A DNA stretch of 64,000 nt from a virus: the IMG/VR virus record IMGVR_UViG_3300044720_000021, positions 2,896 through 66,895 of that record. One strand, 5' to 3'. The translations under genes were made by a program, and so were the position numbers. Positions within the stretch are counted from its first letter, which is position 1, and every line of letters begins with the position of its first letter. The notes beneath the pieces are model-generated. The model was not told where the DNA came from. It ran no database searches and saw only the letters and a list, made by a program, of their open reading frames with translations. Shown here in pieces: positions 8,465 through 33,709 of this stretch.

Positions 8465-8631
8465 GCGAGCTCGAAGATGGAATTCCCGAGCCAACTCGTG
8501 AGGAGATCGAAAAGCACATTCACGCTGAGGCTGAAAAGTCGCTTCAGACGATGGTGCGTCATGCGTTGATTCGATTGACGCCCGATCAAGTGATCGAGGT
8601 TGTCACCAAGGAGGCGAGACTGCGTGGATGA
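8461..8631 (+). CDS. Small hypothetical protein (56 aa, not in ORF track)
   Basis: GTG start overlapping upstream stop; MSELEDGIPEPTREEIEKH.. Confidence 0.45.
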   Translation: MSELEDGIPEPTREEIEKHIHAEAEKSLQTMVRHALIRLTPDQVIEVVTKEARLRG

Positions 8632-9061
8632 AATTGTCAGCAAGATCTCCGACGAGGAGCGCAAGCGGCTGGCAGCGGAACATCGTGCAAAGGTCGCGTC
8701 CGGTGAAATCGACATCGGCCCGAAGCCGCATCACGAGCCCACTGACCCGAGCATTCGTGCAGACCGCAGGGATCCCCAGGCAATCGGTGAAAAGCTGATG
8801 GAGATTCGACGGGCGACCATGCCGGCGACGAACGGGAACGCCAACGGTGCTGCCTACGCAGGGGTAGGGCCGAGTCTCAGCGCGCTTGCTGACGAGCACA
8901 TGTCGGCGCTTCTGGCCGTGCCTGACGTGTCTCACAATGAAACCACGGTCGTTGGGACGGCACGGGCCTATCGTCAGGAGTTGGAGGAGCGTGCCGCCAA
9001 AGGTGACAAGTTCGCCATCTCGATGCTGACGACAGGTCAGCCCGGTGATTCAGACTCGTGA
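8624..9061 (+). CDS. Hypothetical protein
   Basis: AAGGAGG RBS before GTG; coding-like codon usage. Confidence 0.55.
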   Translation: MDEIVSKISDEERKRLAAEHRAKVASGEIDIGPKPHHEPTDPSIRADRRDPQAIGEKLMEIRRATMPATNGNANGAAYAGVGPSLSALADEHMSALLAVPDVSHNETTVVGTARAYRQELEERAAKGDKFAISMLTTGQPGDSDS

Positions 9062-9185
9062 CGGTCAGTGAAAAGATCCGAGGAGTTCTGATGCCTTGGC
9101 GTTGGGCTCGTCGGTGCGCGTGCCACAGCAATATTTGGCCGTGCCAATACATTGACCGACCGAATGACAATCACGGTAGCGGACG

Positions 9186-10232: not shown

Positions 10233-11454
10233 CGTCGAAGATCGAAACGCCGGTCGTGGTCAGTTCATCACGCTGAAACAGACGAACGATCAGTTCGTTG
10301 GGTTCGCGCTTTTCAAGCCCGACCCCGAGCTCGATGACAACCCCGGCTATTTCGAATACTTCGAGCACTACACGCCAGCCACGGGGTACTTCCCGTGCAT
10401 CGGAGACGACTGCCCTCTCTGCGCGGAGGGTGACAATCCTTCCACGCGGGCAAAGACTCTCTGGCTGGTGCCGAACGACAACAAGGAAATGGATGCCGAC
10501 GACGCGATCGTGAAGGTTTTCACGATGAACTGGTCGGTGATCCAGGAGTTCGCAGATCTTCATGCGGACGACGAGACGATCCTCAGTCGCGCGTTCCGCA
10601 TCAAGCGGCTCGAAGGGAATGGGAAGTATGCGGTGCGTCCCAAGCCTGAAAAGCTGAAGGCTCCGCAGGTCAAGGCCGCGTTGAAGGACGCACCGGATCT
10701 CGAACAGCTTGCGACCAAGCAGGCCGCTCGCGTGATGGAAGATCTCGACACGGCCGAGGCGATGGAGGCCGACGAGGACAAGGCCGAGGAGAAGGCCACG
10801 GCGAAGCAGTCGTCCACGTCCAAGGCGAAGAAGGGCAAGCCCGCAGAGGAGCCGGAGCCCGAGACGGGTGAGGACTTCGACCCGGAGGAGGCCAAGGAGT
10901 TCGCCGGGGAAGTCACGGTGAAAAAGCTGAACAAGTCCAAGCTGATCCTCACCGTCGAGACAGGGGACGTGTCGTTCGACGTGTACCTGATCGAAGGCGG
11001 CGACTTCGACATCGAGGACTACAACAAGGACGACACGCTGTATATCGAGGCTGCGAAGGACGAGGATGGCGATTTCATCGCCAGCGTGGTCACGAATGCA
11101 GAGGAGCCTGCCGAGGAGCCCGAGCCCGGTGACGAAGGTGACGAACCCGAACTGTTCGAGGGAGACGACTTCGACGGCAAGGTGACGGTCGTGTCGGTCA
11201 ACTCGGAGAACGACACGCTCACGGTGAAAACCGAGGACGACAAGACGTTCGAGCTCTACTTCCTCGGTGAAGGAGAGGACGAGGACGGGAACGACTGGTC
11301 GAACCTCGATCTCGATGACTTCTCGGAGGACGAGGAGATTGTCGTCGTTGCGGAAAGGGACGGTGAGGGCGACATGCTCGCGTCCAAGTTTCCCGCGAAG
11401 GCGAAGGGCAAGAAGGCAGCAGCCGGCGCGAAGAAAGCGTCCGGTCGCAAGTAG
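10201..11454 (+). CDS. Single-stranded DNA-binding protein with duplicated acidic C-terminal modules
   Basis: YFEH..YFPCIGDDCPLC..FRIKRLEG..Y resembles phage SSBs; follows primase. Confidence 0.6.
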   Translation: MAQPTVRRVRSVEDRNAGRGQFITLKQTNDQFVGFALFKPDPELDDNPGYFEYFEHYTPATGYFPCIGDDCPLCAEGDNPSTRAKTLWLVPNDNKEMDADDAIVKVFTMNWSVIQEFADLHADDETILSRAFRIKRLEGNGKYAVRPKPEKLKAPQVKAALKDAPDLEQLATKQAARVMEDLDTAEAMEADEDKAEEKATAKQSSTSKAKKGKPAEEPEPETGEDFDPEEAKEFAGEVTVKKLNKSKLILTVETGDVSFDVYLIEGGDFDIEDYNKDDTLYIEAAKDEDGDFIASVVTNAEEPAEEPEPGDEGDEPELFEGDDFDGKVTVVSVNSENDTLTVKTEDDKTFELYFLGEGEDEDGNDWSNLDLDDFSEDEEIVVVAERDGEGDMLASKFPAKAKGKKAAAGAKKASGRK

Positions 11455-11463
11455 AGAACTACC

Positions 11464-11516
11464 CCGGTGTGGCTTCTGCGGGCTTCGAAACCACTTCAAG
11501 CCCGCAGACCACCCGG
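11464..11516 (+). other. Intergenic hairpin before the collagen-like gene
   Basis: TCTGCGGGCTT / AAGCCCGCAGA 11-bp stem plus outer CCGG..GTGG / CCACCCGG pairing. Confidence 0.55.
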
Positions 11517-11535
11517 TCAATCGATAGAGGGGAGA

Positions 11536-12489
11536 ATGAAAATGACCAAGAGGATCAGCACCATCATCTCAGCACTGATCGCAGCGATCGTTGTTGCCAC
11601 CATTGCGTCCGCAGGCGCTCCGCAGTCGGCCAACCGGCCGCTCGGTGTCAGCGGGAACGTGATCACAGCCTGCGTCGAGTCGAGCAGCGCGAAGATCAGC
11701 AAGGAGTCGCGTGGCGACCTGAAGCTGCGCAATTGCCAGCCTGGGTTCACCAAGCTGTCATGGAACAAGGTCGGCCCGAAGGGCGCGGCTGGACAGAACG
11801 GTGCCGCAGGCCCGCAGGGCGTGCAGGGATTGTCAGGCGCACAGGGTGCAACTGGCCCGCAGGGTGCTCAGGGTGGCGCAGGCCCGAAGGGTGAAAAGGG
11901 CGATACAGGTGCTACCGGCCCGCAGGGGCCAGCAGGCCCGCAGGGAGAGGCCGGCGCACCCGCACCGACTCTGCTTCGGCTCAGTGGTGACTTCGCAGGA
12001 ACGAATGCGACTGTCGCTACGTCGCTCGACGGCGTGCAGTTCGGCCCGTACCCCGATGGCGGACAGTGGGGCGGCTCGGTCGCTTACAACGGACTCAATG
12101 GGCACACGCTCAGTGAGATCACGCAGTTGTCCTACACGGTCAAGCACTCGTCTCTCGATGACAGTGCGATCTCGTCGCCGTACCTGCGGATTTTCCTCGT
12201 AGGTGACAACGACGTGCTGTTCGACGCGACCGAGTGTGCCACCGTCGTGCCGACAGAGGACGAGTTCCACACCTACGAGGTCACCACGGCTGAAAAGCTG
12301 CGCTACAGTGATGACCCATGCGGTGCCGAGTACGATCCGCAGACGTGGGAGGAGATCGTTGCAGCCCACGGTGAGGAGATCATCGACGGCATCTACGTGA
12401 CGACGGGATTTGCTGGCGGTGCTCCGCTCGCGGCGATCCTTCGCTCGCTGAAGGTGAACGGAACCGACTTCGTGTTCGGGGCCGCGTAG
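11536..12489 (+). CDS. Exported collagen-repeat protein with C-terminal beta-rich domain
   Basis: Signal peptide; about 20 Gly-X-Y triplets ([19 protein letters not shown]). Confidence 0.75.
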
Positions 12490-12500
12490 GATTGTCAGTT

Positions 12501-12574
12501 CGGGGGAGGGCCACGTCGAAGCGCTAGCGCGTGGAGGTCAGGGTGATCACCTTGATCTAACTGGCCCTCCCCCG
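12501..12574 (+). ncRNA. Structured RNA element upstream of HU gene
   Basis: Perfect 13-bp CGGGGGAGGGCCA / TGGCCCTCCCCCG stem enclosing a 10-bp stem with GATC loop. Confidence 0.45.
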
Positions 12575-12597
12575 ATTCAAACCCAACGAAAGGGCGG

Positions 12598-13071
12598 GTG
12601 AAAATGGAGACAGTGACACAGGCACAGCTTCTCAGAGGCACGCTCGACATCATGGAGGACGATCTTCGGATCACGTCGAAGCAGGCGAATGACTTCGTGT
12701 CGTCGTTGCGTGCGGTAGTCGAGGAGCAGGTGGAGTTCGGGAACAAGGTCAACCTGCTTGGGCTCGGTATTTTCACTCCGGTTGGCGTTCTTGCCAAGCC
12801 GAAGCGGAAAGGCGTCAAGCCGCAGACTGGCGAGGAAGTTGTCTACCCGGCGAAGCCCGCGTCCGTGAAGCTGAAGTTCGGCATCGCCAAGCGCGTCAGG
12901 GAGGCTCTGCCGGCCACGACGAGTAGCGCAGGCAAGTCTCTCCTCTCTACGGCCAAGCAGCGGGCAGAGGCAGCCGCAGAGCGTCGGGCAAAGCGCGAGG
13001 AGGAGGAAGCCAAGGCGGCACGCAAGGCCGAGCGCGATGCGAAGAAGGCGGCGGGCGGGAAGAAGAAGTGA
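12598..13071 (+). CDS. hup: HU/IHF-family DNA-binding protein with Ala/Lys/Glu-rich tail
   Basis: GNKVNLLGLGIF..KRKGVKPQTGEEVVYPAK..KF HU signature. Confidence 0.85.
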   Translation: MKMETVTQAQLLRGTLDIMEDDLRITSKQANDFVSSLRAVVEEQVEFGNKVNLLGLGIFTPVGVLAKPKRKGVKPQTGEEVVYPAKPASVKLKFGIAKRVREALPATTSSAGKSLLSTAKQRAEAAAERRAKREEEEAKAARKAERDAKKAAGGKKK

Positions 13072-13322
13072 GCGTCCACGACGCCAACTACCGCAAGCTG
13101 AAGAAGGAGCTCGGGATCCCCGAGGACGAGCCCATTTTCATTCTTCGTGCGAAAGACAGGCTGGCGTTGCCAGTCATCACTCGATACACGAACTCGGCTC
13201 GTCAGATCGAGAGCGCAAAGGTGCGTCCGTCTGACGAGTGGTTCGAGCAGATGGGTGAGGTCGAGCGTCAGTTCGCAGACTTCGCAAGTGCCCATCCATC
13301 GCAAATGAAAATCCCCGACTAG
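13068..13322 (+). CDS. Conserved phage hypothetical protein
   Basis: EPIFILRAKDRLA motif familiar from phage small proteins. Confidence 0.55.
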   Translation: MSVHDANYRKLKKELGIPEDEPIFILRAKDRLALPVITRYTNSARQIESAKVRPSDEWFEQMGEVERQFADFASAHPSQMKIPD

Positions 13323-13334
13323 AAAGAGGCACGA

Positions 13335-13643
13335 ATGAGTTGGAGCGTAAGCAAGAACGGGATTGCCGAGCCGCATGACATCATGGACGCCGTTGGCGCT
13401 CAGTTCAAAGAGACGTACCCGGAGCCAGCCGAGGGCGTCGATGATCAGGCTCGCGCAGCGGCAGGCGTAGCGCAGGATCTCGCGTTCGAGGCGTTCGATG
13501 GTGAAGGCCCGTTCAACGTGCAGATGTCCGGCCATGTGAAAAACGAGGACTCGGACTCGTTTGTCTCGGTCATCGTCACGAAGGTCACAGAAGCCGAATC
13601 GGACGAGACGGCAGACGCACCTGCCGAAGCAGCGACGGTCTAA
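13335..13643 (+). CDS. Acidic hypothetical protein
   Basis: AGAGG RBS; GC3-rich codons. Confidence 0.55.
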   Translation: MSWSVSKNGIAEPHDIMDAVGAQFKETYPEPAEGVDDQARAAAGVAQDLAFEAFDGEGPFNVQMSGHVKNEDSDSFVSVIVTKVTEAESDETADAPAEAATV

Positions 13644-13647
13644 CCGA

Positions 13648-13690
13648 TTACCCCGCCGTTGGCTGACGCTGGCGGCGGGGTAACTACTTT
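13648..13690 (+). terminator. Intrinsic terminator-like hairpin before dnaE
   Basis: TTACCCCGCCGTTGGC-TGAC-GCTGGCGGCGGGGTAA then CTACTTTT. Confidence 0.6.
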
Positions 13691-13704
13691 TCAGAGGAGC
13701 TCGT

Positions 13705-16700
13705 ATGGCGCGTAAGTCACTCAGGGAATACACTGCTCCCGATTTTCATGTCCACAGTGGTTACTCTCTGCTCGATGGGCAGGGGAGTCCGGTGGACATC
13801 GTTGCGCGAGCCATCGAACTCGGGTGGGGAGCCGCAGCGCTCACAGAGCACGGCTGGATGGGATCAGCGCCGGCCTTCTATCAGATGTGCCGCGCGAAGC
13901 AGTGGCCGAATGGAGATCCCAAGCGGCAGATCAAGCCGATCCTCGGGTGCGAGTTCTACGTCGTGCCTGATGAAATTCTCGGAGTCAACAACAAGGACAC
14001 GCAGAAGTCGAGCCGTCACCTGACTGTGCTCGCGCTCACGAAGGAGGGCTATCAGAACCTCGTTGCGTGGCAGACCCTCTCGATGCAGCGTGAAAATTTC
14101 TATCACCGTCCTCGTCTGAGCATCGAAGCGATGATCGAGAGCGCCCCGTGGCCGCTCCATCACAACGTCGTGCTCTCAGGTTGCATGGGTGGCGAGCTCT
14201 GCATGACGCTCGCGCAGTGCAACGGCAATGGACTCAGTGCCGGCGTTGAATATGTGGACGCAATGAAAAGCGTGTTCCCGAACTTCTATGTGGAGATCCA
14301 AAATCACAGTCACGAGTTCTTCTTCGGCAAAGGTTTTCAGTCATACGAGGAGATGTGCGTCAAGCAGGATGCGCTGAACATCGTCTTGCATGAGATCTCA
14401 GTCAGGTCGGGAACGCCCATCGTCCTGACCAACGACTCGCACTACCAGTCGAAGGAACAGCGCAAGGCACACATCGCAATGCTCGCCTCGAAGATGAATC
14501 GGTGGTCGAAGGGCGACACGCATCGCGACGAGAGCGACGAGCACAACGTCAAGGGATACGTTCGCGACTATGCCTACTGGCGGAATTTCATGATGCCGAT
14601 GGAGGAGTTGGAGGTCAGGACTCCTCTTGCGGCCGGCGCGTGCAAGACGATCTTGGAAATCGTGGACGAGGTTGACATCAGGCTCGATCCTCTCGATGAC
14701 TTTAGCTACTCCATCGCATTTTCAGGCTACGACGACACGACGCACGAGATCCGGGCTCGCTGCAAAAAGCGACTGCATGAACTGATGATCAAGCACGGTG
14801 GCGACATCGCAGTCGAGCGGTTCGAGCACGAGCTCCGCGCGATGGGGAATTTCAAGCACTACCTCCTGATGATGTCCGACTTCATCAAGTGGGCTGAGGA
14901 TCAGGGCATCTACACCGAGGTCAGAGGATCTGCGAATGCGTCCATCCTCTGCTACTGCCTGAAAATTCACGACATCGATTCAATCCAATACAAGCTGACG
15001 TTCGAGCGGTTCGTCAACCCTGAGCGGAAGAAGATGCCGGACATCGACATCGACATCGAGGCCGACCGCTACCCGGACTTCATGAAATTCGTCCAGCAGT
15101 ACGTCGAGGAGCGCGAAGGGCCGGATCAAATCGCGCTGATCTGCAACCTCGGCACGATGGCAAACCGTTCGACCTTCCGCATGGCCGCTGAGGCATACGG
15201 AATCGAAAAGGAAACCATCGATGAAATTGCAGACCTACTGCCGCAGATGATCGACTCGGGCATCGTGGAGGAGGGCGACGACGCCTACTCCGTGCTCAAG
15301 GACGAGTTCCCTGAGCTCTATGACGTTGCGCGCGGGATCTTCGACAGTCCCAAGAACGTCAGTCAGCACGCCTGCGGCTGGATTTTCGGTACGAAGGAGC
15401 GTCCGCTCAAGGACTGGATCCCGCTCTACCTGATCGCGTCGAGCGGAGCGATGGTGACGCAGTACGACTACAAGACCATCGAGAAGTTCGGGCTCACCAA
15501 GGGAGATTTTCTTCGCCAGAAATATCTGGCCGTGATGAAAAGATGCGCCCAGATGTCGGGCATGACGATCGCTGATCTGAAGGAGATCCCTCTGGATGAT
15601 CCGGCGACGATGCAGCGGATCCGCGATGGACGTACCGAGGGTGTTTTCACCCTTCAGGGAAAGACCAACCGCACAGGTGGGATGGAAGTCGAGCCTGAAA
15701 ATGAGCACGGTGTCATCGCCTCGGTTGCCATCTATCGCCCGAGCCTGACGCGTCCCGGCTACCACAAGGTCTACAACAACCGTCGTCGTGGTGACGAGCA
15801 TGTCACCTACCCGCACGAGCTAGCGGAGAGCGTCCTGGGTGAGTCGTTCGGTCTGCCGATTTTTCAGGAGCAGATCCTCGATCTTGGTTACGCCATCGGG
15901 TTCGACCACAACGACGCGCAGGAGCTCTTGGACGCGATCAAGCTGGCGAAGGGCATCGGTCGTGGTGCGAAGGAAGCGTTCGCAAAGATCAAGCCCAAGT
16001 TCATCGAAACCGCTAGTGAAAAGATGACCGTCAAGCAGGCGACGGAGATGTGGGACACGTACATGGAATCCTTCCAGGGCTACGGGTTCAACCGAGCCCA
16101 CGCGACGGGCTACGGGATCCGCGCCGACAGGGCCGCGTACCTGCTCGAACATCACACGCAGAACTTCTACGTCAGCTTGCTCGACGTGTACCCTGAAAAG
16201 CACAAGTATGTGGCGGGTGCAAGGTCGGAGGGGTTCCGGTTCCTCCCCCCGGACATCAATCAGTCATCGGCCGGCTTCACGAAGGGGACAGATGAAAACT
16301 CGATCCGTGTCGGTCTTGCCCGAATTCATGGTGTCGGGCCGGCGGCTCTCAAGTCTATCCTTGTTGGCCAGCCTTTTTCATCGCTTGACGATCTCAAAGA
16401 GCGAACGCCGGGAACTTCGGTCAAGGTCACGACGATCAACAACCTCGCGGCAGCGGGAGCGCTCTCGTCTTTGGGTGTAGAGGCGACCGAAGATGACAGC
16501 GAGATGTTGAAAATCCTCGGCTTCCTTTGCGACAGCCCGAAGGCGATGGAGGGCATCGAACCTGACAAGGGCGCAGTCAGGCGGTGGACGAGTGATCGAG
16601 GCTCGCATCACCTGGGGCTCTACCGGGGTGTCGAGATCACGGACTACAAAGAGAGCGTCAGTAAGCTGTTCTGGATCCCCGAGCTACCTGACGACGAGCT

Positions 16701-17052
16701 ACTGAAAAAGAAGGCGAGCTCTTGGGCGCGAGTCAAGACGTGGCTCATGTTGGTGGTGGATGAAAATGGCATACCGTTTCACATCATGGTCAACGAGGAC
16801 AGGAAGGAGGAAGTCGCCTACCTCGATTTCATCATCAAGAGGCACAAGGGCGCAGTCATCTGCTTCGACGGCTCGATCAAGAAGCCGTTCGACACAGACG
16901 GCCCGATGGGGTTCCGCTTCTACGAGGTCACAGGTGCTAACCGTGACAATCCGCAGGTGTGGAGCCCAAATGAGGACGAGCGCATGACAAGGGGCTTCTG
17001 CCTCCTCAGCAAGAAGAAGCGACAAGCGCGAACCAAAACAACAGGAGGGTGA
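13705..17052 (+). CDS. dnaE: DNA polymerase III alpha subunit (C family)
   Basis: PHP HVHSGYSLLDG, TEHG, TNDSHY; RGSA; catalytic MPDIDID; QHACG; GYGFNRAHA; no intein seen. Confidence 0.95.
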   Translation: MARKSLREYTAPDFHVHSGYSLLDGQGSPVDIVARAIELGWGAAALTEHGWMGSAPAFYQMCRAKQWPNGDPKRQIKPILGCEFYVVPDEILGVNNKDTQKSSRHLTVLALTKEGYQNLVAWQTLSMQRENFYHRPRLSIEAMIESAPWPLHHNVVLSGCMGGELCMTLAQCNGNGLSAGVEYVDAMKSVFPNFYVEIQNHSHEFFFGKGFQSYEEMCVKQDALNIVLHEISVRSGTPIVLTNDSHYQSKEQRKAHIAMLASKMNRWSKGDTHRDESDEHNVKGYVRDYAYWRNFMMPMEELEVRTPLAAGACKTILEIVDEVDIRLDPLDDFSYSIAFSGYDDTTHEIRARCKKRLHELMIKHGGDIAVERFEHELRAMGNFKHYLLMMSDFIKWAEDQGIYTEVRGSANASILCYCLKIHDIDSIQYKLTFERFVNPERKKMPDIDIDIEADRYPDFMKFVQQYVEEREGPDQIALICNLGTMANRSTFRMAAEAYGIEKETIDEIADLLPQMIDSGIVEEGDDAYSVLKDEFPELYDVARGIFDSPKNVSQHACGWIFGTKERPLKDWIPLYLIASSGAMVTQYDYKTIEKFGLTKGDFLRQKYLAVMKRCAQMSGMTIADLKEIPLDDPATMQRIRDGRTEGVFTLQGKTNRTGGMEVEPENEHGVIASVAIYRPSLTRPGYHKVYNNRRRGDEHVTYPHELAESVLGESFGLPIFQEQILDLGYAIGFDHNDAQELLDAIKLAKGIGRGAKEAFAKIKPKFIETASEKMTVKQATEMWDTYMESFQGYGFNRAHATGYGIRADRAAYLLEHHTQNFYVSLLDVYPEKHKYVAGARSEGFRFLPPDINQSSAGFTKGTDENSIRVGLARIHGVGPAALKSILVGQPFSSLDDLKERTPGTSVKVTTINNLAAAGALSSLGVEATEDDSEMLKILGFLCDSPKAMEGIEPDKGAVRRWTSDRGSHHLGLYRGVEITDYKESVSKLFWIPELPDDELLKKKASSWARVKTWLMLVVDENGIPFHIMVNEDRKEEVAYLDFIIKRHKGAVICFDGSIKKPFDTDGPMGFRFYEVTGANRDNPQVWSPNEDERMTRGFCLLSKKKRQARTKTTGG

Positions 17053-17615
17053 AAATGGCACCATTTCCACAGATCGATCACTACATGGGTCGCAAGATCG
17101 AAGCGATCGAGGATCACGAGCTCGGGTGGGCGCTCCTTCTTGAAGGTGGCGTTCGCTTCGTGGTCACGGATTCGCTCGCAGAGCGGCCCTTGGAGGAGCA
17201 CGTCGTCGGCAAGGCGCTTCAGCGGCAGGATCTCTCGGCGCACGGCACGACGCTGTGGTTCGGGACGGATGAAAACCGTCTCGCGATGAAGCTGATCCTG
17301 ACGCCGAACAAGTACGCCGTCGCGGAGCCGAACTACGAGGGCGGTCTGCTTGTCAATCCTCAGCAGCCCGAGGAGTACGCGGACATTCAGACCGTGGAGC
17401 CTGTCGCTCCGGGCGAGCGCAGCGTGGAAGGCCCGGACGAGGAAGGCGTTGCGGAGCGCGAGCTACTTGACCCTCAGCTTGCAGAAGCCGACGCGGCCGG
17501 CGAGGCAGCAGAAGCAGAGCGGCCCGCTCGTGAGGCGGCGGAAGCAGCAGAGGCCGAACGACTCGCGCAGGAAGCCGCTGCGGGCGACGAAACGGATCCT
17601 AGGACTGATTCCTAG
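17049..17615 (+). CDS. Hypothetical protein with Ala/Glu-rich tail
   Basis: GGAGGG RBS; overlap with dnaE stop. Confidence 0.6.
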   Translation: MKMAPFPQIDHYMGRKIEAIEDHELGWALLLEGGVRFVVTDSLAERPLEEHVVGKALQRQDLSAHGTTLWFGTDENRLAMKLILTPNKYAVAEPNYEGGLLVNPQQPEEYADIQTVEPVAPGERSVEGPDEEGVAERELLDPQLAEADAAGEAAEAERPAREAAEAAEAERLAQEAAAGDETDPRTDS

Positions 17616-17912
17616 GTGGAGCGCTCTCAGGGGCGTAGAGGGCCGCTCAGTCGGCTGGCCGACCACTTCAGCATGGACTCGCTGCGAGCCCGTCAGCAGC
17701 GCGACCATGACGCCGAGCAAGCGCTGAAGCGTCTACAGGCGCAGGTGGCTGAAAGGCAGAAGGGTGGCCCGAGGAAGAAAATCAGCACCACCCCGCGTAA
17801 GACGAAGGTGGTAATGAAACGTCGGGACAAGAAATCGAACAAACCGATTCGCAAGAACAAGACGCGGCGGCTTCGGTATCTAAAGGCTGAGAAGCAGAGA
17901 ATCAACAGATGA
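17616..17912 (+). CDS. Basic hypothetical protein
   Basis: Lys/Arg-rich C-terminal half; fills gap before recA. Confidence 0.45.
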   Translation: MERSQGRRGPLSRLADHFSMDSLRARQQRDHDAEQALKRLQAQVAERQKGGPRKKISTTPRKTKVVMKRRDKKSNKPIRKNKTRRLRYLKAEKQRINR

Positions 17913-18979
17913 AAAGACGACCGCCCTCAGCAGCAGCACAGATCCGCGATGCGGTCAACACCGCGTTGAGTGCGGACGTGATCGGGCTCGCGTCCGACTC
18001 ACGGTTCAAGGTCGAGAAGATCACGACTGGCAGCCTGACAATCGACAGGATCACAGGTGGTGGGCTTCCGCGTGGCCGGCACGTCGAGCTCTCTGGCGAC
18101 TACGCCGCAGGGAAGTCCACCATCGCCTATCGAACGATGGCTCTCGCGCAGCAACGGGGAGAGTTGTGCGCACTCGCGGATCCCGAGAAGGTGTTCGAGG
18201 CAGATTGGTTCCGTCAGCAAGGAGGCGATCCTGAAAATCTACTAATGATGCGACCGGATGAAGGGCAACACGCAGCAGAGCACCTGATCGAAGTGCTGAT
18301 GCTGTTCGCTCGCGGCGGTGAGGGTCTGCCCAAGGTCAGCATCGTCACTATCGACTCGGTTGCATCTCTCCTGCCGGGAGAGGAACTGAAAAAGCAGCCG
18401 ACCGAGGGTGAGGACAGAACGGCATCCCGAGCTCGGATGATGTCGCGTCTGCTTCGGCGGGTGACGACGGTGAATCAGGACACGCTTTTCATCTGGACGA
18501 ATCAGACCATCGACAAGGTGTCCGGTTACGGCGGCACGACGACGCCGGGAGGTCGGGCGCTCAAGTTCTATGCGTCGGTGCGGCTCGAACTGAAAAAGCT
18601 GGACAGGAAGAAAGCCGAGCGCAACATCGTGGTCAAGGGCAAGATGACGAAGAAGGAAGTTCCAGTCGGGCAGTGGGTTGCAGTCCGCGCTGAAAAGCAA
18701 AAGACGGCAAGGCCCGAGATGGAGGGGACGTTCCTGTTCGACTTCGACCGCAAGTGCATCGATCGCGAGCGCGAGATCCTGTTCCTCGGGCTCCAAGACG
18801 GGCTGATCGATCGGCGCGGTAACGTGTACCACTTCGAGGACTCAGACGGTCAGGCGTGGTCGGGCATGGAGACAGCGTTCGTCAACCTGCTCCGCGATAC
18901 GCCAGAGATGGCCGATGAAATTGCCTGGGCAATCAATGCCAACACAATGATGATGGGAGGAGATGAAAATGGCTCGTGA
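17909..18979 (+). CDS. recA: RecA-family recombinase
   Basis: TTGSLTID..GGGLPRGR; GDYAAGKST; IDSVASL; TTPGGRALKFYASVRLEL. Confidence 0.95.
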   Translation: MKRRPPSAAAQIRDAVNTALSADVIGLASDSRFKVEKITTGSLTIDRITGGGLPRGRHVELSGDYAAGKSTIAYRTMALAQQRGELCALADPEKVFEADWFRQQGGDPENLLMMRPDEGQHAAEHLIEVLMLFARGGEGLPKVSIVTIDSVASLLPGEELKKQPTEGEDRTASRARMMSRLLRRVTTVNQDTLFIWTNQTIDKVSGYGGTTTPGGRALKFYASVRLELKKLDRKKAERNIVVKGKMTKKEVPVGQWVAVRAEKQKTARPEMEGTFLFDFDRKCIDREREILFLGLQDGLIDRRGNVYHFEDSDGQAWSGMETAFVNLLRDTPEMADEIAWAINANTMMMGGDENGS

Positions 18980-19190
18980 GCAGACATGCGACATCTGCAA
19001 TAAACCAGCAGAGCTCGCCGCCAAGCTGTATCTCGGGCCGCGCGGTAGAGGGAAGGACTTCTCCTCCTACACCGCACACCTTGACGTGGGGACGTGTTGC
19101 CTCGTGAGGGTGCAGGGCTTTGGCAAGTGGCAGAAGCGCCGGAAGATCAATCGTGAGAAGAAGCCGGTCGAGGAGCCGCAGGCAGCCTGA
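18963..19190 (+). CDS. Small zinc-finger protein
   Basis: CDIC..CC. Confidence 0.55.
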   Translation: MKMAREQTCDICNKPAELAAKLYLGPRGRGKDFSSYTAHLDVGTCCLVRVQGFGKWQKRRKINREKKPVEEPQAA

Positions 19191-19567
19191 TGGACACTCC
19201 GTGGTCACGCGCAAACTCGCAAAGAAAATCTGAGAGGCAAGAGCAGAGGATTGCGGCAAAGCCGGGTGGCAAGAAGCAAGTCAACTCGGGCCGGCACTGG
19301 CCGTACAAGCGTGACAACAGGCTAAATGGGTTCCTCGTGGAAGCGAGGACGACCGACGCGGGCAGCTACCGCATCTCGAAAGAGGAGTATGAAAAGCTGA
19401 TCAACGACGCGATCTTGACCCCGCCAGGGCTCCTGCCTGGGATGGCCGTGGATCTCGGTGGGCTTGAGCTTTTCATCATTCGACAAGACGATCACGACTA
19501 CCGCGAGAAGCTGATCGGGGATCTGATCGATGAAGTGAAAACACTGAAGGAGAAGGGTGGAAGCTGA
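19190..19567 (+). CDS. PD-(D/E)XK Holliday junction resolvase-like nuclease
   Basis: SERQEQRIA..QVNSG..D..FLVEARTT pattern. Confidence 0.65.
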   Translation: MDTPWSRANSQRKSERQEQRIAAKPGGKKQVNSGRHWPYKRDNRLNGFLVEARTTDAGSYRISKEEYEKLINDAILTPPGLLPGMAVDLGGLELFIIRQDDHDYREKLIGDLIDEVKTLKEKGGS

Positions 19568-19865
19568 CGTTCTCATGTGCCCGCGATGCGGGAATGCTTA
19601 CGGTACCGAGGAGGCACAGGTGATCCCGGCCATCGCTGCGCTCGGCGGCAATGGCGTGGCGATTCCCGAGCGGTACTTGATTTTCTGTCGCGGGTGTGAC
19701 GTGCCGTTCTACACGCCGACCAAAAGCGCTGAGGAGTTCACTCGCGTCGATGGTGGGTGGGAATGTTCTGAGTGCGGGGAACAGGCACGCGAGCACGCTG
19801 AGGCCAAAATGCCGCATGAGGGTAGCTTCGTCCGGCTCTGCGATGGACGGCTGGCGAAGTTGTAG
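19557..19865 (+). CDS. Zinc-ribbon protein
   Basis: CPRC, CRGC, CSEC. Confidence 0.55.
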   Translation: MEADVLMCPRCGNAYGTEEAQVIPAIAALGGNGVAIPERYLIFCRGCDVPFYTPTKSAEEFTRVDGGWECSECGEQAREHAEAKMPHEGSFVRLCDGRLAKL

Positions 19866-20845
19866 TGGCGCGCACGGCGCTTGAAAAGAGAATCGTGGAG
19901 GAGCGCCGCGCAAAGGGCGTCCTCGTGCCGCTGCTCGAAATGCTGCTAGAGCAGTACCAGTGCGTCGAGGACGAGGAAGATCAGTGGTTCATGATCGAGC
20001 TCATGAAGGCCCGCGCAAAGGAGCGGGAGAAGGGTGTCTTTTCACCTTCGATGCTTTCCTCGTGTCTGCGTCAGTCTTACTTCGCAAAGACACAGGTGGA
20101 GAAGCGGTTGCCGGCGATGCCGCGCACGAACGGCTACTTCGTGGACGGGGATTTTCGTCACTACAAGTGGCAGTTCCTTCTCTGGAAGCTGCACCGCGCC
20201 GGCAAGCTGATACTGCTCGGTTGCGAAGTCCGCGTCTATCACCCGAACGGCGACTTCGCTGGCACGATCGACGCGCTCGTGGAGATCGACGGCAAGCTGT
20301 ACGTCGTGGACTTCAAGGGCATGAACGTCTCAGATTTTCAGAAGCTAGAGAGATACGGTACGCAGGTGAAGCACCGTGTTCAGATTGTGGGCTACGGATT
20401 GATTCTCGAACTCTCGCAGACCGCTGAGGGGTTCATGGGCACGTTCCTTGGTCTGAAAATCGAGGGCTGTCTGCTCGTCGGTGAGAACAAGGGAGGCCCG
20501 TCGCAGTCGGGCTCGCCGCTCGGGTTGCACGAGGACTTTGTTCCGATCCCAAGATACAAGAGCGAAGTGAAAAGACTGATGCACAAATTGAGGAGGTACG
20601 TCGATGCCGAGGAAATCCCCGAGCCCGCCTGCACGAGCACGCGGATCAAGCAGTACCAAGAGTGCCCATTCAAGTACCGCTGCCGGGAGGAAGTCGAACG
20701 CATCCAGCGGGAGCGTGAAGGAACTGAAAATCGCAACTCCTCGGGGCCAAAAGTTGCAGTTTCTACGCGATCTACAACTGATCGTGCCGAGCGATCTGCC
20801 AGCGGACGAAAGACGCGTGCCGCTCGACCTGACGGGGACGAGTAG
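19865..20845 (+). CDS. Cas4-like/RecB-family exonuclease
   Basis: SPSMLSSCLRQ; GTIDALV..VVDFKG; three C-terminal Cys (Fe-S type arrangement). Confidence 0.75.
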   Translation: MARTALEKRIVEERRAKGVLVPLLEMLLEQYQCVEDEEDQWFMIELMKARAKEREKGVFSPSMLSSCLRQSYFAKTQVEKRLPAMPRTNGYFVDGDFRHYKWQFLLWKLHRAGKLILLGCEVRVYHPNGDFAGTIDALVEIDGKLYVVDFKGMNVSDFQKLERYGTQVKHRVQIVGYGLILELSQTAEGFMGTFLGLKIEGCLLVGENKGGPSQSGSPLGLHEDFVPIPRYKSEVKRLMHKLRRYVDAEEIPEPACTSTRIKQYQECPFKYRCREEVERIQREREGTENRNSSGPKVAVSTRSTTDRAERSASGRKTRAARPDGDE

Positions 20846-23496: not shown

Positions 23497-24048
23497 GTGG
23501 CTCGTAAATTCAACGGAAAGAATTTCACCTACGCAGGTATTGGCTCGCGAGAGACGCCACAGGACGTGCTCGATGGCATGGAGGCCATTGCCTACACGCT
23601 TGCCGCAGGATGGAACCTTCGATCGGGCGCGGCTGACGGTGCTGATTCGGCGTTCGAGCGTGGTGCAGAACACGGGGGTGCAGGGCACGCCACCGAGCTC
23701 TATCTTCCCTGGCCTGGGTACAACGATCGCAAGGAAGCAACTCTGCATCATCCCACGCCCGAGGCATATCTATTGTCCTCTGATTTTCACCCTGCGTGGC
23801 CGCATCTGAGCAGAGGGGCCAAGTCTTTGCACGCCCGCAATGCGCACATCATTCTCGGGGCGGATCTCGACGCGCCGGCTCGCTTCGTTCTGTGCTGGAC
23901 GCCGCGCGCCAAAGGGGGAGGGGGTACCGGGCAGGGCATTCGAATCGCACGCCATTACAAGGTGCCAGTCTACGACTTGGCTGATGAAAAGATTCGAGAA
24001 CGTGTCCTCTCGACTACGAATTTCATGAGGACTCTCGGTGGCTCGTAA
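23497..24048 (+). CDS. SLOG-fold DprA/Smf-like protein
   Basis: YAGIGSRETP, LRSGAADGADSAFE, GGTGQGIRIA. Confidence 0.8.
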   Translation: MARKFNGKNFTYAGIGSRETPQDVLDGMEAIAYTLAAGWNLRSGAADGADSAFERGAEHGGAGHATELYLPWPGYNDRKEATLHHPTPEAYLLSSDFHPAWPHLSRGAKSLHARNAHIILGADLDAPARFVLCWTPRAKGGGGTGQGIRIARHYKVPVYDLADEKIRERVLSTTNFMRTLGGS

Positions 24049-24718
24049 ATTCCCGTCCAAGAAGAAGGCGACTGGCGCTCGCAAGAACCCGGCCTGGGGG
24101 GTCATCGGCGTGGACTTGTCGATGACAAGCATCTCGGGTGCGATGATTTTGCACGATGAAATGCTTGGCAAGGTGAAGGGGCCGTCGCTTCATTGCGTCC
24201 GTTGGACGAGAGACGTTCATTGGTTCGAGCGCATGGCCGCAGTGAGTCGCGCTGAAAATTTTATTCACGACCTGATGTCAGGGATCCCTGGGTGCGTGGT
24301 CGAATTGGATCGGCTTTTCATTGGGGTTGAGGAGCCCTGGCCTTTGGGGATGGTAAAGCGAATGGAAAGCGGTTGGCTAAAGCAGCAGTCGCAGATCCAC
24401 GGCGCATTCATGGGCGGACTTCTGCGCTACGGCTACCGGAACATCTTCGAGGTCAACAACATGGCGTGGAAGTCGCCCGTCGCTCGCGACCTAGGAGTGA
24501 AAATCACCAAGGATTTCAAGTGGCGAGTGCCGGCGTGGGCGATAGAGGCATACGGGGTGCCTGAGTACCCCGATCTGATTGAGAGCTCCAAGGGGCTCGT
24601 TCCACGGCCAGAGGAGAGCCGTGCGAAGGCCAAGCAGCCCGACGATCGCTACGACGCGCTCGGGATCATGAATTGGATGGAGAACGAGATCCTGTCCGGC
24701 TCCGTAGTGATGCTTTGA
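24038..24718 (+). CDS. ruvC: RuvC-like Holliday junction resolvase
   Basis: VIGVDLS, IGVEE, DDRYDALGI RNase H-fold acidic motifs. Confidence 0.7.
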   Translation: MARKFPSKKKATGARKNPAWGVIGVDLSMTSISGAMILHDEMLGKVKGPSLHCVRWTRDVHWFERMAAVSRAENFIHDLMSGIPGCVVELDRLFIGVEEPWPLGMVKRMESGWLKQQSQIHGAFMGGLLRYGYRNIFEVNNMAWKSPVARDLGVKITKDFKWRVPAWAIEAYGVPEYPDLIESSKGLVPRPEESRAKAKQPDDRYDALGIMNWMENEILSGSVVML

Positions 24719-27452: not shown

Positions 27453-27614
27453 TTTCATGGTGGGGCAGACTTCGCAACCCAGATCGATTTCGGCTGGACG
27501 TGAAGCGCGTTGTTGTCATCGACGGGCTCGACTTCATCATTCGTGACTTTCATGCGATTGGTGCGTACAGTCAAGACGACTGCGACGAGATCATGGTCAG
27601 GTTCGAGCGGTGGA

Positions 27615-27887
27615 ATGGCTCGTAAGAGCGCAGCCAAGTCACGCCGAGCCCCACAGGTGGCGCATCTGAAGCCGCCCAAGTTCGCGCACTATCTCACGCT
27701 CGGTGAACTGTCAGTGAAAATCGGGAGGGATCCAAGCCGGATCCGCGCCCTCGAACGAGAGGGCCGTTTGCCTGAAGCGAAGCGAGCTCAGGTGGGCAAG
27801 CTGCCTGTCCGGCTCTACTCGCCCGAGCAGGTGGTCGAGATCGAGAGGATTTTCAAAGAGATGCGCCCTGGCCGTCCGCGTGCTTGA
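27615..27887 (+). CDS. MerR/BldC-like helix-turn-helix protein
   Basis: YLTLGELSVKIGRDPSRIRALEREGRLP..RLYSPEQV. Confidence 0.75.
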   Translation: MARKSAAKSRRAPQVAHLKPPKFAHYLTLGELSVKIGRDPSRIRALEREGRLPEAKRAQVGKLPVRLYSPEQVVEIERIFKEMRPGRPRA

Positions 27888-28082: not shown

Positions 28083-28773
28083 ATGGCCGCGAAGGAACCG
28101 ACCGTCAGCGACTACATGGAATTGCACGATCTTGCCAAGTCGCTGATCGACAAGCTGGAAGATGCGAGACTCGACTGGAAGGAAGGCACGTCCGACGAGC
28201 CCGCTATCCGCAATGAAATGAAGGGTTATCGCGGCCGGCTTACTCGGTTGCGTCGGAAGGCGGGGCTCTGATGGAAGCGCGAGAGATGTTCGAGAAGGCG
28301 TCAGAACTGACTGCCACTGCGCCGTTTGGATTCGTTTACGGTCACGATGAAAACGGGCAGGCAGCGCTCGTGCTCGTGGCACGCAGCGATTCTGCTCGAC
28401 AACTTCAGCCTTTCGTCAGTGCTCTTTTCAGGCTGATGGAACGGAGCAAGTGATGGCTACAAACAAGAAGCCCATCACGGAAGTTCAGCGCGCGGAATTT
28501 CAGGCCAACGTCATCGACGTGGTGAATGCGTTCCTCGACTCCGACATCGCGAACCAACTGCATGTCGAATTCACGCAGCATCTTGGGGATGCGCACGGGC
28601 ATAAGCCCAAGGACATCACGACTCATTACGCGGTGGTGAAATTCCCTCACCGGGGATGCAACCACGAGCGCCTTATGCAGATCATCGATCTTGCAACGTT
28701 CCTCGACTGCAAGGTGTCTCTGAGTGAGGACGCTGAGGTTGTCATCTGGCCGGGGAGCGCGCGAGAGTCATGA
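28083..28773 (+). CDS. Three small hypothetical genes (28083-28271, 28271-28453, 28450-28773)
   Basis: TGATG/GTGA coupling. Confidence 0.5.
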
Positions 28774-29168
28774 GAAAAGGCGGCGGGCGCACATGGTCAG
28801 CGACGGTCACGGTTGTTGGTCTGCAATTCCGTTGGAAGGCAGATGGTCGCGAGACGTTGGCTCGCAACGTGCCGATCCCGGTGCTTCTCGAACGAGAGCC
28901 GGCGAACGAGCACGATGAAAACGCGGTCAAGGTGATCATCGCTCAGAACTACAGCCTGAAGGCGCTGAGGGGAATCCACTTGGGCTACCTGCGTCGAGAG
29001 GTTGCGGCGATGATCGCGCCCAAGCTGGACGAGGGGAGCATCGAGCCTGTCGTGCTGCGGGTCACTGCGGTGGATCCGAAGCCGGGAGAGGCGGCGCTCG
29101 AAATGACGTTCCGCGATGTCAAGCTAAAGACGACCGCTGTGAAAAAGGGTCGCAAACAAGCCAAGTGA
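28770..29168 (+). CDS. HIRAN-domain protein
   Basis: VVGLQFR..LEREPANEHDENAVKV..HLGYLRRE. Confidence 0.85.
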   Translation: MRKGGGRTWSATVTVVGLQFRWKADGRETLARNVPIPVLLEREPANEHDENAVKVIIAQNYSLKALRGIHLGYLRREVAAMIAPKLDEGSIEPVVLRVTAVDPKPGEAALEMTFRDVKLKTTAVKKGRKQAK

Positions 29169-29176
29169 CAAGCCAC

Positions 29177-29205
29177 TTGACAATCTGATTGTCAGCGTGT
29201 AGTTT
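29177..29205 (+). promoter_or_regulatory. SigA-type promoter overlaid by a perfect inverted repeat
   Basis: TTGACA-17 nt-TAGTTT with TG extension; TGACAATC-T-GATTGTCA at 29178-29194. Confidence 0.75.
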
Positions 29206-29240
29206 GTCAGTGTCCGAGACGGCGACGAAGGAGGAGAAAG

Positions 29241-30158
29241 ATGGCAGAGAACGCAATCACGCTCCGCGCAAAGGCGAAGGTGGCAGGCATCGAGGGCTAC
29301 AAGTTGATGACTGTTCCCGAGCTCGAAGCGGCGCTGAAAAAGTCCGGGGGCTCGACGGGTCGCAAGGCCGCACCCGCAGCTTCCTCGAACGGATCCGGGC
29401 GCAAGCAGGCCACGGGTCGCAAGGTGGCGAGCACGACCGTCAAGAAGCCGGCGGCGTCCACCGGGCGCAAGCAGGCCACGAGTGCGAAGCAGGCACCTGC
29501 CGCGAAGTCCGAAACTTCGGGCAAGGCGAAGCGGCCTGCCACTGGCACTCGCAAGCAGGCGGCGGCGACCACGAAGAAGGCACCCGCCACGACCAAGAAG
29601 CAGGCCGCGCCGAAGGCGGCAAAGGTCAACGCCGATGCTCCGGGTCGCGCGGCCATCGACAACAAGGCCGTGGACTGGAAGAAGGACACGACCATCGGCA
29701 AGGCGGACGGCCCGCGCCAGGACATCATGCGTGCGCTGCGCAAGTTCAACGGGAACAAGGAGAAGGTTTTCACCGCGCTCAAGGATGCGGCGCAGACCCT
29801 CTACCCGAGGAACAAGCGGAGCGGCGAGCGCTACAACAAGGCCAAGTCGCTCGAACTGCTCCGCTGGCACATCGGTCGGGTGGCGTTCGACTACGTGGTT
29901 CAGACGGGGCAGCACACTGTCTCCTCGAACCGCGCGGCCTACGGCCACTCGACGGATCCGCAGGCGGTCAAGCGGCGCGAGGCACGCGGGGTGAGCTCTA
30001 CGGGCACCACAGGCCGCAAGAGCGCGCCGAAGGCCCAGACCGCTCGGAAGCCCGCGCCGACGCCGAAGAAGGCACAGACGCCCGCACGCAAGCCCGCAGC
30101 GGCGTCCACGCCGAAGTCGGCAGCCGGTCGCAAGACGGCCGCAGCGCGGAAGCGGTAG
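29241..30158 (+). CDS. Histone H1-like basic protein: Rho-N/HEH-like N-terminus, folded core, Lys/Ala/Thr-rich arms
   Basis: AAGGAGG RBS; TLRAKAKVAGIEGYKLMTVPELEAAL; repeated GRKQAT/KKPAA/KAP motifs. Confidence 0.7.
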   Translation: MAENAITLRAKAKVAGIEGYKLMTVPELEAALKKSGGSTGRKAAPAASSNGSGRKQATGRKVASTTVKKPAASTGRKQATSAKQAPAAKSETSGKAKRPATGTRKQAAATTKKAPATTKKQAAPKAAKVNADAPGRAAIDNKAVDWKKDTTIGKADGPRQDIMRALRKFNGNKEKVFTALKDAAQTLYPRNKRSGERYNKAKSLELLRWHIGRVAFDYVVQTGQHTVSSNRAAYGHSTDPQAVKRREARGVSSTGTTGRKSAPKAQTARKPAPTPKKAQTPARKPAAASTPKSAAGRKTAAARKR

Positions 30159-30176
30159 GTGTCGGCAACTCGGACA

Positions 30177-30209
30177 GGTGGGAGGCCCGGAGAGATCCGG
30201 GCCTCTACC
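30177..30209 (+). terminator. Hairpin after the H1-like gene
   Basis: GAGGCCCGGA-GAGA-TCCGGGCCTC stem with GNRA loop; no U-tract. Confidence 0.5.
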
Positions 30210-30214
30210 GTCTG

Positions 30215-30478
30215 ATGATCGCACAGACTTTCACGCTGTCGGAGTACGCGATTGCAGGCTGGCTCGCGCTTGCACTCACGCTGCTCGTGCTACACGCCCT
30301 GGTCGATTTGTCTAGGCTTTTCACGCGCCTGATGAATCGCACGCCGACAGTCAACGTGGACGCCGACGTGCAGGCAGTCATCACAGAGTCGCTGCATGTT
30401 CATCGCGACCCGCTTGCGCCTGACGCTCGATACGGGGCATTCAACGAAGCCCGAGAGAGATTGAGAAGGAGGAGATGA
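30215..30478 (+). CDS. Single-TM membrane protein
   Basis: AIAGWLALALTLLVLHALV. Confidence 0.5.
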   Translation: MIAQTFTLSEYAIAGWLALALTLLVLHALVDLSRLFTRLMNRTPTVNVDADVQAVITESLHVHRDPLAPDARYGAFNEARERLRRRR

Positions 30479-30803: not shown

Positions 30804-30967
30804 AGCTCACTACCTCCCTGAGTAGAGAGCGGAACATGACGGCCCGTCCTTCACCGGCACGGGCCGTCACCGTTCTAGGGCTCAACGCTCGAACCGTAGA
30901 GCCGGATCCGTGAGTAGGTGCGCTAGCTGCGAAGGTGGATCGCGTAGCCATGCATGAAAATCCACCC

Positions 30968-30996
30968 TTGACATGCCGTGGCCGTTCAGGTAGATT
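30968..30996 (+). promoter_or_regulatory. SigA-type promoter of the plus-strand early operon
   Basis: TTGACA-17 nt-TAGATT; AAAATCCACCC just upstream; TTGTCA twice at 30995-31006. Confidence 0.75.
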
Positions 30997-31029
30997 GTCA
31001 TTGTCAAGCAAACGAGAGGGAGGTAGCGC

Positions 31030-33384: not shown

Positions 33385-33709
33385 TGAAAATCTGGGATAA
33401 TTTTCACGCGTTTGCCGATGTCAGACGATCTCACCGGCGAAGCTGGACGCGCTTTTCAGGAATGCGCGAGCGATACCCGGATGAAATGCATCCCGGAGCT
33501 CAAGCGCAATGCAGACGTGCAAAGACAGATCGACGTTGCGGCCGGCATTCTTCTGCCGACAGGGAACGACAAAATACCCGGCGGTTGCCGGGTTTGTTGA
33601 AAATCTCTCGATTGTGGGATCCTCGCAACCCGTAGCGGACTGCAAGCGATGATCCCTAAAACGTCCTCGCAGGTCTACGCATAGCCCTCCTCGAACTCTC
33701 TACATACAT

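Follow-up and report, generated by a model that had tools for sequence, protein, structure and literature searches.

The 64-kb window analyzed here is taken from a 69,205-bp single-contig virus record (IMG/VR record IMGVR_UViG_3300044720_000021, positions 2,896 to 66,895; GC content of the record, ~59%) and carries, at 29241 to 30158, a gene designated P0001 that encodes a very basic protein of 305 residues. The genome is saturated with a short AT-rich word, found mainly as TGAAAA and TGACAA, and this word was shown to be selected at the DNA level, for its sequence as well as for its spacing. Our best explanation is that P0001 coats DNA as an abundant, phage-specific protein of the nucleoid-associated or chromatin type, that clustered copies of the word control its promoter, and that it is the leading candidate for the reader of the word. 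We put this explanation forward tentatively, giving it somewhat less than an even chance.

In the genome to which the window belongs (hereafter W), the word is 8 bp long, TGA[A/C]AA[T/G]C, and is present in both orientations, with 435 copies over 69 kb, or about 1 per 160 bp. No hexamer of the genome is commoner than TGAAAA, which has 302 copies in the window versus 25.7 expected, and TGACAA was found 106 times versus 29 expected. Among the single-base variants of TGAAAA, only TGACAA (5.3 times the expected number) and TGAAAT (3.8 times) were enriched, while other one-base variants, e.g., TGAAGA, TGATAA, and TGTAAA, were depleted. Both TGAAAA and TGACAA prefer a C two bases past the hexamer, and the most frequent 8-mers were TGAAAAGC (61 copies), TGACAATC (45 copies in the window, 37 of which lie inside genes), and TGAAAATC (44 copies). 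Copies of the word were found on both strands and in each reading frame in which the word does not introduce a stop, and its density is 8.5 per kb in noncoding DNA versus 4.3 per kb in coding DNA. In the context NTG-AAR-A, lysine was encoded by AAA 61 times and by AAG twice, compared to 123 AAA and 680 AAG codons elsewhere (odds ratio, 169; P = 1e-42), and the choice between GAA and GAG for glutamate behaved in the same way. Within genes, codon preference thus gives way to the word.

The spacing of the word is just as constrained. The gaps between sites had a coefficient of variation of 0.66 (random placement, ~1.0), and 26 to 35 sites were counted in each full 5-kb bin. A preliminary description of this DNA, made from the letters alone, had treated TGAAAA and TGACAA as one class of site, which was borne out: in addition to having the same C past the hexamer, the two variants exclude each other within ~40 bp, and in six of seven two-variant genomes the combined variants were more regular than an independent superposition (P from 0.013 to <0.0005). 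For instance, in the related genome L001, each variant alone had a random-looking coefficient of variation of ~0.93, which dropped to 0.66 when both were taken together. Hence, the two variants are interchangeable and belong to a single class of site. The orientation of the word does not switch along the 69 kb; a mild plus-strand excess follows gene direction, and the plus-strand fraction ranged from 0.50 to 0.71 across the genome body without any strand rule.

Four other origins of the word were considered and rejected. Directional signals (Chi, KOPS/SRS, and primase start sites) were dismissed because there is no orientation switch, and a signal acting at the RNA level was dismissed because the word is found on both strands and in all frames that avoid an in-frame stop. 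A reading of TGAAAA as a -35 decoy was discarded in W since T is underrepresented immediately before the word (7%). Finally, a host-genome word, of the uptake or Chi-like type, was rejected for the only bin available, which is labeled Acidobacteria and in which TGACAA occurred 912 times in 4.5 Mb versus 535 times for a control pattern; by extrapolation of its local density, the phage contig alone would supply ~380 of the 912 copies.

The promoter of P0001 stands out against this regular background. The features of the gene and its flanks are as follows.

29140..29145, plus strand: copy of TGAAAA within the 3′ end of the HIRAN gene
29166..29173, plus strand: copy of TGACAAGC (TGACAA), with its TGA serving to terminate the HIRAN gene (28770-29168)
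29177..29182, plus strand: perfect -35 hexamer, TTGACA
29178..29194: perfect 17-bp palindrome, TGACAATC-T-GATTGTCA, covering the -35 hexamer and most of the spacer
29183-29199: 17-bp spacer between the -35 and -10 hexamers
29200..29205, plus strand: -10 hexamer TAGTTT, of this phage's own TAGnnT promoter type
29202..29209, minus strand: copy of TGACAAAC (TTGTCA at 29204), overlapping the -10 hexamer and the start-site region
29227..29236, plus strand: strong Shine-Dalgarno sequence, GAAGGAGGAG, 6 nt before the ATG
29241..30158, plus strand: P0001 open reading frame, 305-residue basic protein
29643..29945, plus strand: region coding for the conserved core, in which two helices are followed by a beta-hairpin and a long helix, with a nearly invariant TGQH motif
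30170..30217, plus strand: GC-rich, terminator-like hairpin without a U tract, just past the P0001 stop codon (-44.5 kcal/mol, z = -5.4)

The five copies of the motif that had been described upstream of the gene (29140, 29166, 29178, 29189, and 29204) were all found in place, as was the perfect palindrome reaching from the -35 hexamer into the spacer. The palindrome is made of two optimal 8-bp words head to head, both arms being TGACAATC, with hexamer starts 11 bp apart (TGACAA at 29178 and TTGTCA at 29189). All four TGACAA copies of the cluster carry C at position 8, like the dispersed copies. Under uniform random placement, five copies in 70 bp are unremarkable (P ~0.3), a null that ignores the spacing rule; the real sites avoid each other. 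Gaps of 26 bp or less make up only 18 of the 434 gaps genome-wide, and four consecutive ones (26, 12, 11, and 15 bp) fall on the P0001 promoter; when the gaps of this genome were permuted, a run of this kind arose in 0.1% of cases (P ~0.001). Four TGACAA copies in 45 bp are likewise unique within the window (P ~0.006), and the palindrome is the sole perfect one made of the word there. Besides this palindrome, the window contains only one convergent word pair no more than 12 bp apart. That pair (33385-33406) is imperfect, consists of TGAAAATC, a 6-bp gap, and the inverted copy, and lies in noncoding DNA at the edge of the minus-strand operon. When promoter density was scored with each genome's own word set, the 150 bp upstream of the gene were among the densest ~1.5% of windows in 6 of 13 genomes (W, L002, L004, L013, L011, and L054).

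To characterize the protein itself, we relied on its sequence and on a structure predicted by AlphaFold2 (AF2) with a 72-sequence alignment. P0001 has a net charge of +51 and an isoelectric point (pI) of 11.3, and is organized in four segments.

Residues 1-36: helix pair, putatively of the Rho_N type
Residues 37-134: linker rich in Lys, Ala, and Thr
Residues 135-235: ordered core
Residues 236-305: basic tail

This architecture agrees with the preliminary description, which had proposed a helix pair, a Lys/Ala/Thr-rich linker, an ordered core, and a basic tail. The N-terminal helices were predicted at residues 2 to 14 and 25 to 34 with a predicted local distance difference test (pLDDT) score of 84 to 95. 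The core, about 90 residues long (approximately 140 to 225), was predicted with a pLDDT of 94 to 98 and comprises helices at 158 to 168, 173 to 187, and 200 to 222 along with a short beta-hairpin, while the linker and tail were predicted to be disordered. The charge is distributed over the helix pair (+2), linker (+21), core (+11), and tail (+17), the linker and tail each having a pI of 12.0, and the protein contains five (S/T)GRK turns as well as TPKK, TTKK, and TVKK.

P0001 itself gave no match in Pfam (E value of 1 or better) or PHROGs, and its 72 aligned relatives were compared to Pfam at an E value of 0.01 or better. For Rho_N (PF07498), P0001 falls below the Pfam reporting level, while 11 of the 72 relatives match (best E value, 8e-5); residues 7 to 46 of the Rho N-terminal domain (1a62) align to residues 1 to 40 of P0001 in a VIA search (Z = 3.8). 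The Hc2 family (PF07382) matches three relatives through low-complexity repeats (best E value, 7e-7) but not P0001. The AT-hook (PF02178) matches two; P0001 has no GRP, the core of this motif, just (S/T)GRK turns and a conserved AKRP, and its close relative P0002 has PGRPKG. Neither a helix-turn-helix (HTH) nor an H-NS or Lsr2 domain was detected in P0001. The earlier label of an H1-like protein thus holds for the composition of the tails but not for the fold, since the linker-histone winged helix (PF00538) was found in P0001 by neither Pfam, Foldseek, nor VIA, with no H1 or H5 chain among the matches.

The gene also bears marks of strong expression. The G+C content at third codon positions (GC3) of P0001 is 0.85, the highest of the 66 genes of at least 100 codons, followed by a head-module gene (phrog_3116) and a gene for an SSB-like protein. 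Taken together, GC3, the perfect -35 hexamer, the strong Shine-Dalgarno sequence, and the terminator-like hairpin suggest that P0001 is expressed at a very high level.

The preliminary description had also proposed that gene and motif should go together across related phages, and this comparison was carried out. A hyperabundant AT-rich hexamer (7 to 25 times the expected number) was present in all 22 distinct gene-carrying loci long enough to score, and in none of 66 helicase-related loci lacking a P0001 family gene. These noncarriers came from an IMG/VR scan seeded with the helicase and are loci of at least 7 kb; their top hexamers were ordinary codon- or Shine-Dalgarno-type words. Hence, no relative tested had the gene without a word, and no noncarrier phage tested had such a word. 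The word drifts between relatives while its density stays at ~0.5 to 1 per 100 bp, as follows.

TGAAAA: W and L010/L012
TGAAAA plus TGACAA: L001, L004, and L091
TGACAA(T): L002 and L105
TGACAA plus TGCCAA: L005/L013, L100, and L101
TGCCAA: L098
TGAAAT/GAAATT: L008, L009/L054, L092, L106, and L109
TGAAAT plus TGGAAT: L107 and L108
TGAAATC(A): L095
GAATT type: L093, in which the EcoRI palindrome GAATTC is also 7 to 8 times overrepresented

From these data, we infer DNA binding, sequence-specific reading by the core, compaction, high abundance, and autorepression for P0001. The protein would hold DNA through its N-terminal helix pair (Rho_N/HeH) and through two long, basic arms bearing (S/T)GRK turns that resemble SPKK, and the ordered basic core would be the best candidate module for recognizing the 6- to 8-bp word of the lineage. 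The strong promoter of the gene, with four copies of the word at 11- to 15-bp spacing across the -35 hexamer, spacer, and -10 hexamer, would be shut by any word binder as free protein builds up; with P0001 as the reader, this would amount to negative autoregulation. P0001 is favored as the reader because it is the only nearby conserved protein of no assigned function with clear DNA-binding modules and because its core is ordered, basic, and lineage specific. Furthermore, it is apparently highly expressed, as more than 400 sites per genome copy require, and the only dense cluster of the word in the genome lies on its own promoter, which is the usual layout for an autoregulated binder. The neighboring MerR-like protein, for its part, is plausibly matched to a different element, which occupies the 17-bp spacers in three other promoters.

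Several observations weigh against this assignment. At the promoter, the -10 hexamer at 29200 is weak relative to the E. coli consensus, matching TATAAT at three of six positions, and a simple sigma-70 scanner did not call the promoter at 29177. One copy of the cluster is a plain -35, TTGACAA; this sequence was found at the -35 position in 9 of the 10 lineage promoters examined (L012 has TTGACG) and recurs in relatives whose word is TGAAAT. Moreover, the cluster was not seen in 7 of 13 relatives, where word density upstream of the gene was ordinary. The cluster might reflect promoter architecture only, i.e., a strong -35 TTGACAA with overlapping -35-like hexamers and an ordinary dimeric-repressor operator, functionally unconnected to the genome-wide word and resembling it through a shared TGACA core. 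A palindrome within the spacer is indeed the classic layout of such an operator, and the word is about twice as dense in noncoding as in coding DNA. Yet both palindrome arms exactly match an 8-mer found mostly inside genes, all four TGACAA copies share the C at the eighth position with the dispersed sites, the cluster departs from the spacing that the word observes in the rest of the genome, and five relatives have clusters of their own made of different words. We consider an explanation by promoter architecture unlikely.

A second set of concerns relates to the core, which has no recognizable DNA-binding fold. No convincing match was obtained in PDB by Foldseek (E value of >3), by a VIA-wide search, or in AFDB clusters, BFVD, and the ESM Atlas; the best VIA match was the Nab2 N-terminal domain (Z = 6.2), a protein interaction domain, and the rest were generic three-helix folds (Z ≤ 5). 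P0001 may not act on double-stranded DNA at all, but as an RNA-binding protein or RNA chaperone, as a scaffold, or, through phase separation, as a hub of replication proteins beside the HIRAN and helicase genes. The apparent Rho_N type of the helix pair, a domain from an RNA-binding factor, would fit such a role, as would the Nab2 match of the core, the long basic disordered regions, typical of condensate-forming proteins, and the constant position of the gene after the HIRAN and helicase genes. On the other hand, HeH/SAP-type helix pairs and tails rich in Lys, Ala, and Pro are established binders of double-stranded DNA, the fold matches of the core are at noise level for helical domains, and the promoter cluster would be left unexplained. 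Among the explanations considered, this one appears the most improbable.

The remaining concerns stem from the shared ancestry of the carriers, which all belong to one syntenic lineage, so that the co-occurrence of gene and word counts for about one evolutionary event. Therefore, at least five other proteins of the module co-occur with the word equally well: the helicase, MerR-like, and 226-residue RuvC-like proteins were present in 16 of 16 genomes, the HIRAN protein in 15, and a 202-residue protein in 14. Divergence of the core correlated with divergence of the word at a Spearman r of 0.35, compared to 0.50 for both the helicase and the RuvC-like protein and a range of 0.28 to 0.50 for the five other proteins; since the core does no better than its neighbors, this distance test does not single out P0001. 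Residue 210, in the long helix, does sort by word class (H with TGAAAA plus TGACAA, M/Y with TGACAA only, L with TGCCAA, and R/Q with the TGAAAT types), but we treat it as a lead and do not count it as evidence because the word classes are also clades.

These points bear most directly on a third alternative, in which P0001 is a sequence-independent coat or condenser of nucleic acid, acting in the manner of H1, Hc2, or an HU tail, while the word would be read, and the promoter regulated, by a host factor or by a different conserved protein of the phage, e.g., to time coat production. Besides the co-occurring module proteins, of which the 226-residue RuvC-like, 202-residue, and 132-residue proteins have no assigned function, this alternative draws on the lack of any advantage of the core in the distance test, on the absence of a known DNA-reading fold in the core, and on the established ability of basic low-complexity tails such as those of H1 and Hc2 to bind DNA without specificity. 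Against it, no better DNA-reading signature was found in the other conserved proteins near the gene, the MerR-like protein being plausibly paired already with its own spacer element, and a conserved, well-folded, basic, lineage-specific core needs a role. In addition, the drift of the word among close relatives fits a coevolving phage reader better than a host factor. We regard a nonspecific coat as doubtful, although it is the most serious of the alternatives to P0001 as the reader of the word.

The reading of P0001 as a word-reading coat has a more far-reaching form, which we likewise hold to be doubtful as a whole. It would amount to a sequence-addressed viral chromatin, in which a private word at nucleosome-like, mutually exclusive spacing overrides codon choice and is read by the core of P0001. 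The protein would coat or compact phage DNA only, marking it off from word-free host DNA; its specificity and the word would coevolve, with residue 210 as what may be one specificity determinant, and the words at the promoter would set the level of the protein by feedback. If confirmed, such a system would be categorically new.

The role proposed for P0001 works most like that of phage genome-coating proteins, with tails of the H1/Hc2 type added. Phage phi29 p6 and SPO1 TF1 are abundant early proteins that coat their own genome and repress or organize early promoters; p6 recognizes bendability, and TF1, which has an HU fold, recognizes hydroxymethyluracil DNA. However, neither is known to use a short word written in the genome, and no similarity in sequence or fold to P0001 was found. 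With H1 and the bacterial H1-like proteins (chlamydial Hc1/Hc2 [PF07382] and the Lys/Ala/Pro-rich tails of mycobacterial HupB and Pseudomonas AlgP), P0001 shares very basic, disordered arms rich in Lys, Ala, Thr, and Pro, SPKK-like turns, and a probable high abundance, and the stoichiometry of linker histones is similar to about one word site per 160 bp. This likeness is compositional and not one of homology, as P0001 lacks a winged helix and neither H1 nor Hc2 is known to be addressed to a defined word.

The word itself also has partial counterparts. The stoperators of cluster A mycobacteriophages (L5 gp71 sites) are 13-bp sites, present at ~25 to 35 per genome and oriented with transcription, that are read by an HTH immunity repressor. 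They are asymmetric, short, and dispersed, also occur inside genes, and are bound by a single phage protein that controls its own early promoter. The likeness to the present word lies in the asymmetric, short, dispersed sites, including those within genes; here, however, the sites are 6 to 8 bp long, number 435 per genome, are orientation free and evenly spaced, and occur in both orientations inside genes, and P0001 has no HTH. Nucleoid proteins that bind AT-rich DNA have been tied to phages as well, namely, phage-encoded H-NS (PMC3097231) and the prophage Lsr2-like protein CgpS (PMC5137423), and host Lsr2 is required for mycobacteriophage infection (PMC10066036). Common to these and the present case are an AT-rich target in GC-rich DNA, basic motifs of the minor-groove type, and a nucleoid protein linked to the phage life cycle. 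H-NS, CgpS, and Lsr2 read general AT richness, whereas here an exact word is selected and its one-base variants are depleted. Lastly, cyanobacterial HIP1 is a hyperabundant genomic word without a known reader (PMC5861425). It resembles the phage word in being short, many-fold overrepresented, kept by selection inside genes, and different between relatives; the phage word differs in being much denser (1 per 160 bp) and orientation free, in the mutual exclusion of neighbors, and in having a lineage-specific candidate reader with the only cluster on its promoter. The system lacks the defining features of each of the families compared (H1, Hc2, AT-hook, stoperator, and directional signals).

If P0001 does read the word, this would be a virus that directs its chromatin protein by means of a code running through all of its genes. 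Such a code would account for the private short words that saturate some phage genomes and would provide sequence-based discrimination of phage from host DNA. The relatives would then form a natural series of orthologs with shifted 6- to 8-bp specificities, which could serve as orthogonal DNA-binding modules. Even as a general DNA coat only, P0001 would represent a large unannotated family, a new ordered domain, and a marker gene for its lineage.

The extent of that family was determined by an exhaustive HMMER search with the core (residues 128 to 250), which yielded 182 cluster representatives at an E value of 1e-3 or better (core self-match, 5.5e-75); a word-index protein search had retrieved one relative only. 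Apart from a few fragments, nearly all members are ~210 to 460 residues long with the core at the same relative position, and they share the N-terminal helix pair, an AKRP motif in the linker, the core, and the basic tail. Within the core, Q224 is invariant and L207, R213, T222, and H225 are nearly so. P0001 thus defines a large unannotated protein family, of at least 182 clusters, with a new ordered domain, and full-text literature searches found no description of the family or of the word. Relatives were recovered from Logan, IMG/VR, JGI, and one GTDB bin, the metagenome and GTDB scans returning mostly short contigs plus one genome-bin contig. The long contigs are all 62 to 74 kb or fragments of such genomes, and they keep the gene order RecA, helicase, MerR-like, HIRAN, and P0001 family gene; the part of this order from the helicase onward holds even in the most distant members looked up. 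The family is a hallmark of a soil phage lineage without cultured members (~62 to 74 kb) that encodes DnaE, DnaB, and RecA.

The phage itself is remote from those in culture. Its terminase is only ~22% identical to that of any cultured phage, and no match was obtained by megablast and tblastn against 50,697 phage records. The region was found in two sequencing runs, both of soil metagenome DNA, and no RNA sequencing run containing it was found. One genome-sized member of the lineage, L091 (CALMZP010000084.1; 70,839 bp), was binned in an “uncultured Acidobacteria” metagenome-assembled genome, the rest of which is not enriched for the word; it is either a misbinned phage or a hint of an acidobacterial host.

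Other features of the P0001 neighborhood and of the window are listed below.

24038-24718: 226-residue protein, conserved in 16 of 16 lineage genomes compared
27510-27887: MerR-like HTH gene, upstream of the HIRAN gene and conserved in all relatives
Upstream of P0001, before the MerR-like gene: ResIII/DEAD helicase gene
28770-29168, plus strand: HIRAN domain gene (Pfam E value, 1e-10), directly 5′ of P0001
Downstream of P0001: weakly ArdA-like gene
30955..31006, plus strand: promoter of the ArdA-like operon, with TGAAAA at 30955, a -35 hexamer at 30968-30973, a -10 hexamer (TAGATT) at 30991-30996, and tandem TTGTCA at 30995 and 31001

The 226-residue protein had no match in Pfam or PHROGs; a language model search placed it near RuvC family nucleases (score, 0.91 to 0.93), which we take as a lead only. 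At the ArdA-like operon promoter, the flanking TGAAAA and tandem TTGTCA already reported were present, and the tandem copies span the -10 hexamer and the start region. A dyad, CACCC-n-GGGTG, lies in the 17-bp spacer element common to the promoters at 21191, 24715, and 27884, and half of this element abuts the -35 hexamer at 30968. The MerR-like HTH protein is plausibly the binder of the spacer element in these three promoters, for which it is the obvious candidate. The phage also carries a replication and recombination set of its own at 6820-20845, encoding a DnaB-like helicase, a DnaG-type primase, a DNA polymerase III alpha subunit (1,115 residues), an SSB-like protein, RecA, a Holliday junction resolvase, and a PD-(D/E)XK nuclease.

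Two further loci were atypical. In L095 (9700-10000), the family member was called short, with the core at its N terminus and a stretch rich in Lys and Ala upstream in another frame; a miscalled start or a frameshift is the probable cause, and the gene call on the minus strand at 9732-9965 appears spurious. In L110 (JGI11643J11755_11716507; 7.1 kb, 46% GC), a weak match to the tail region was found (E value, 1e-4), and this contig has a different hyperabundant word around ATGTCCGA, with TGTCCG at 22 times the expected number.

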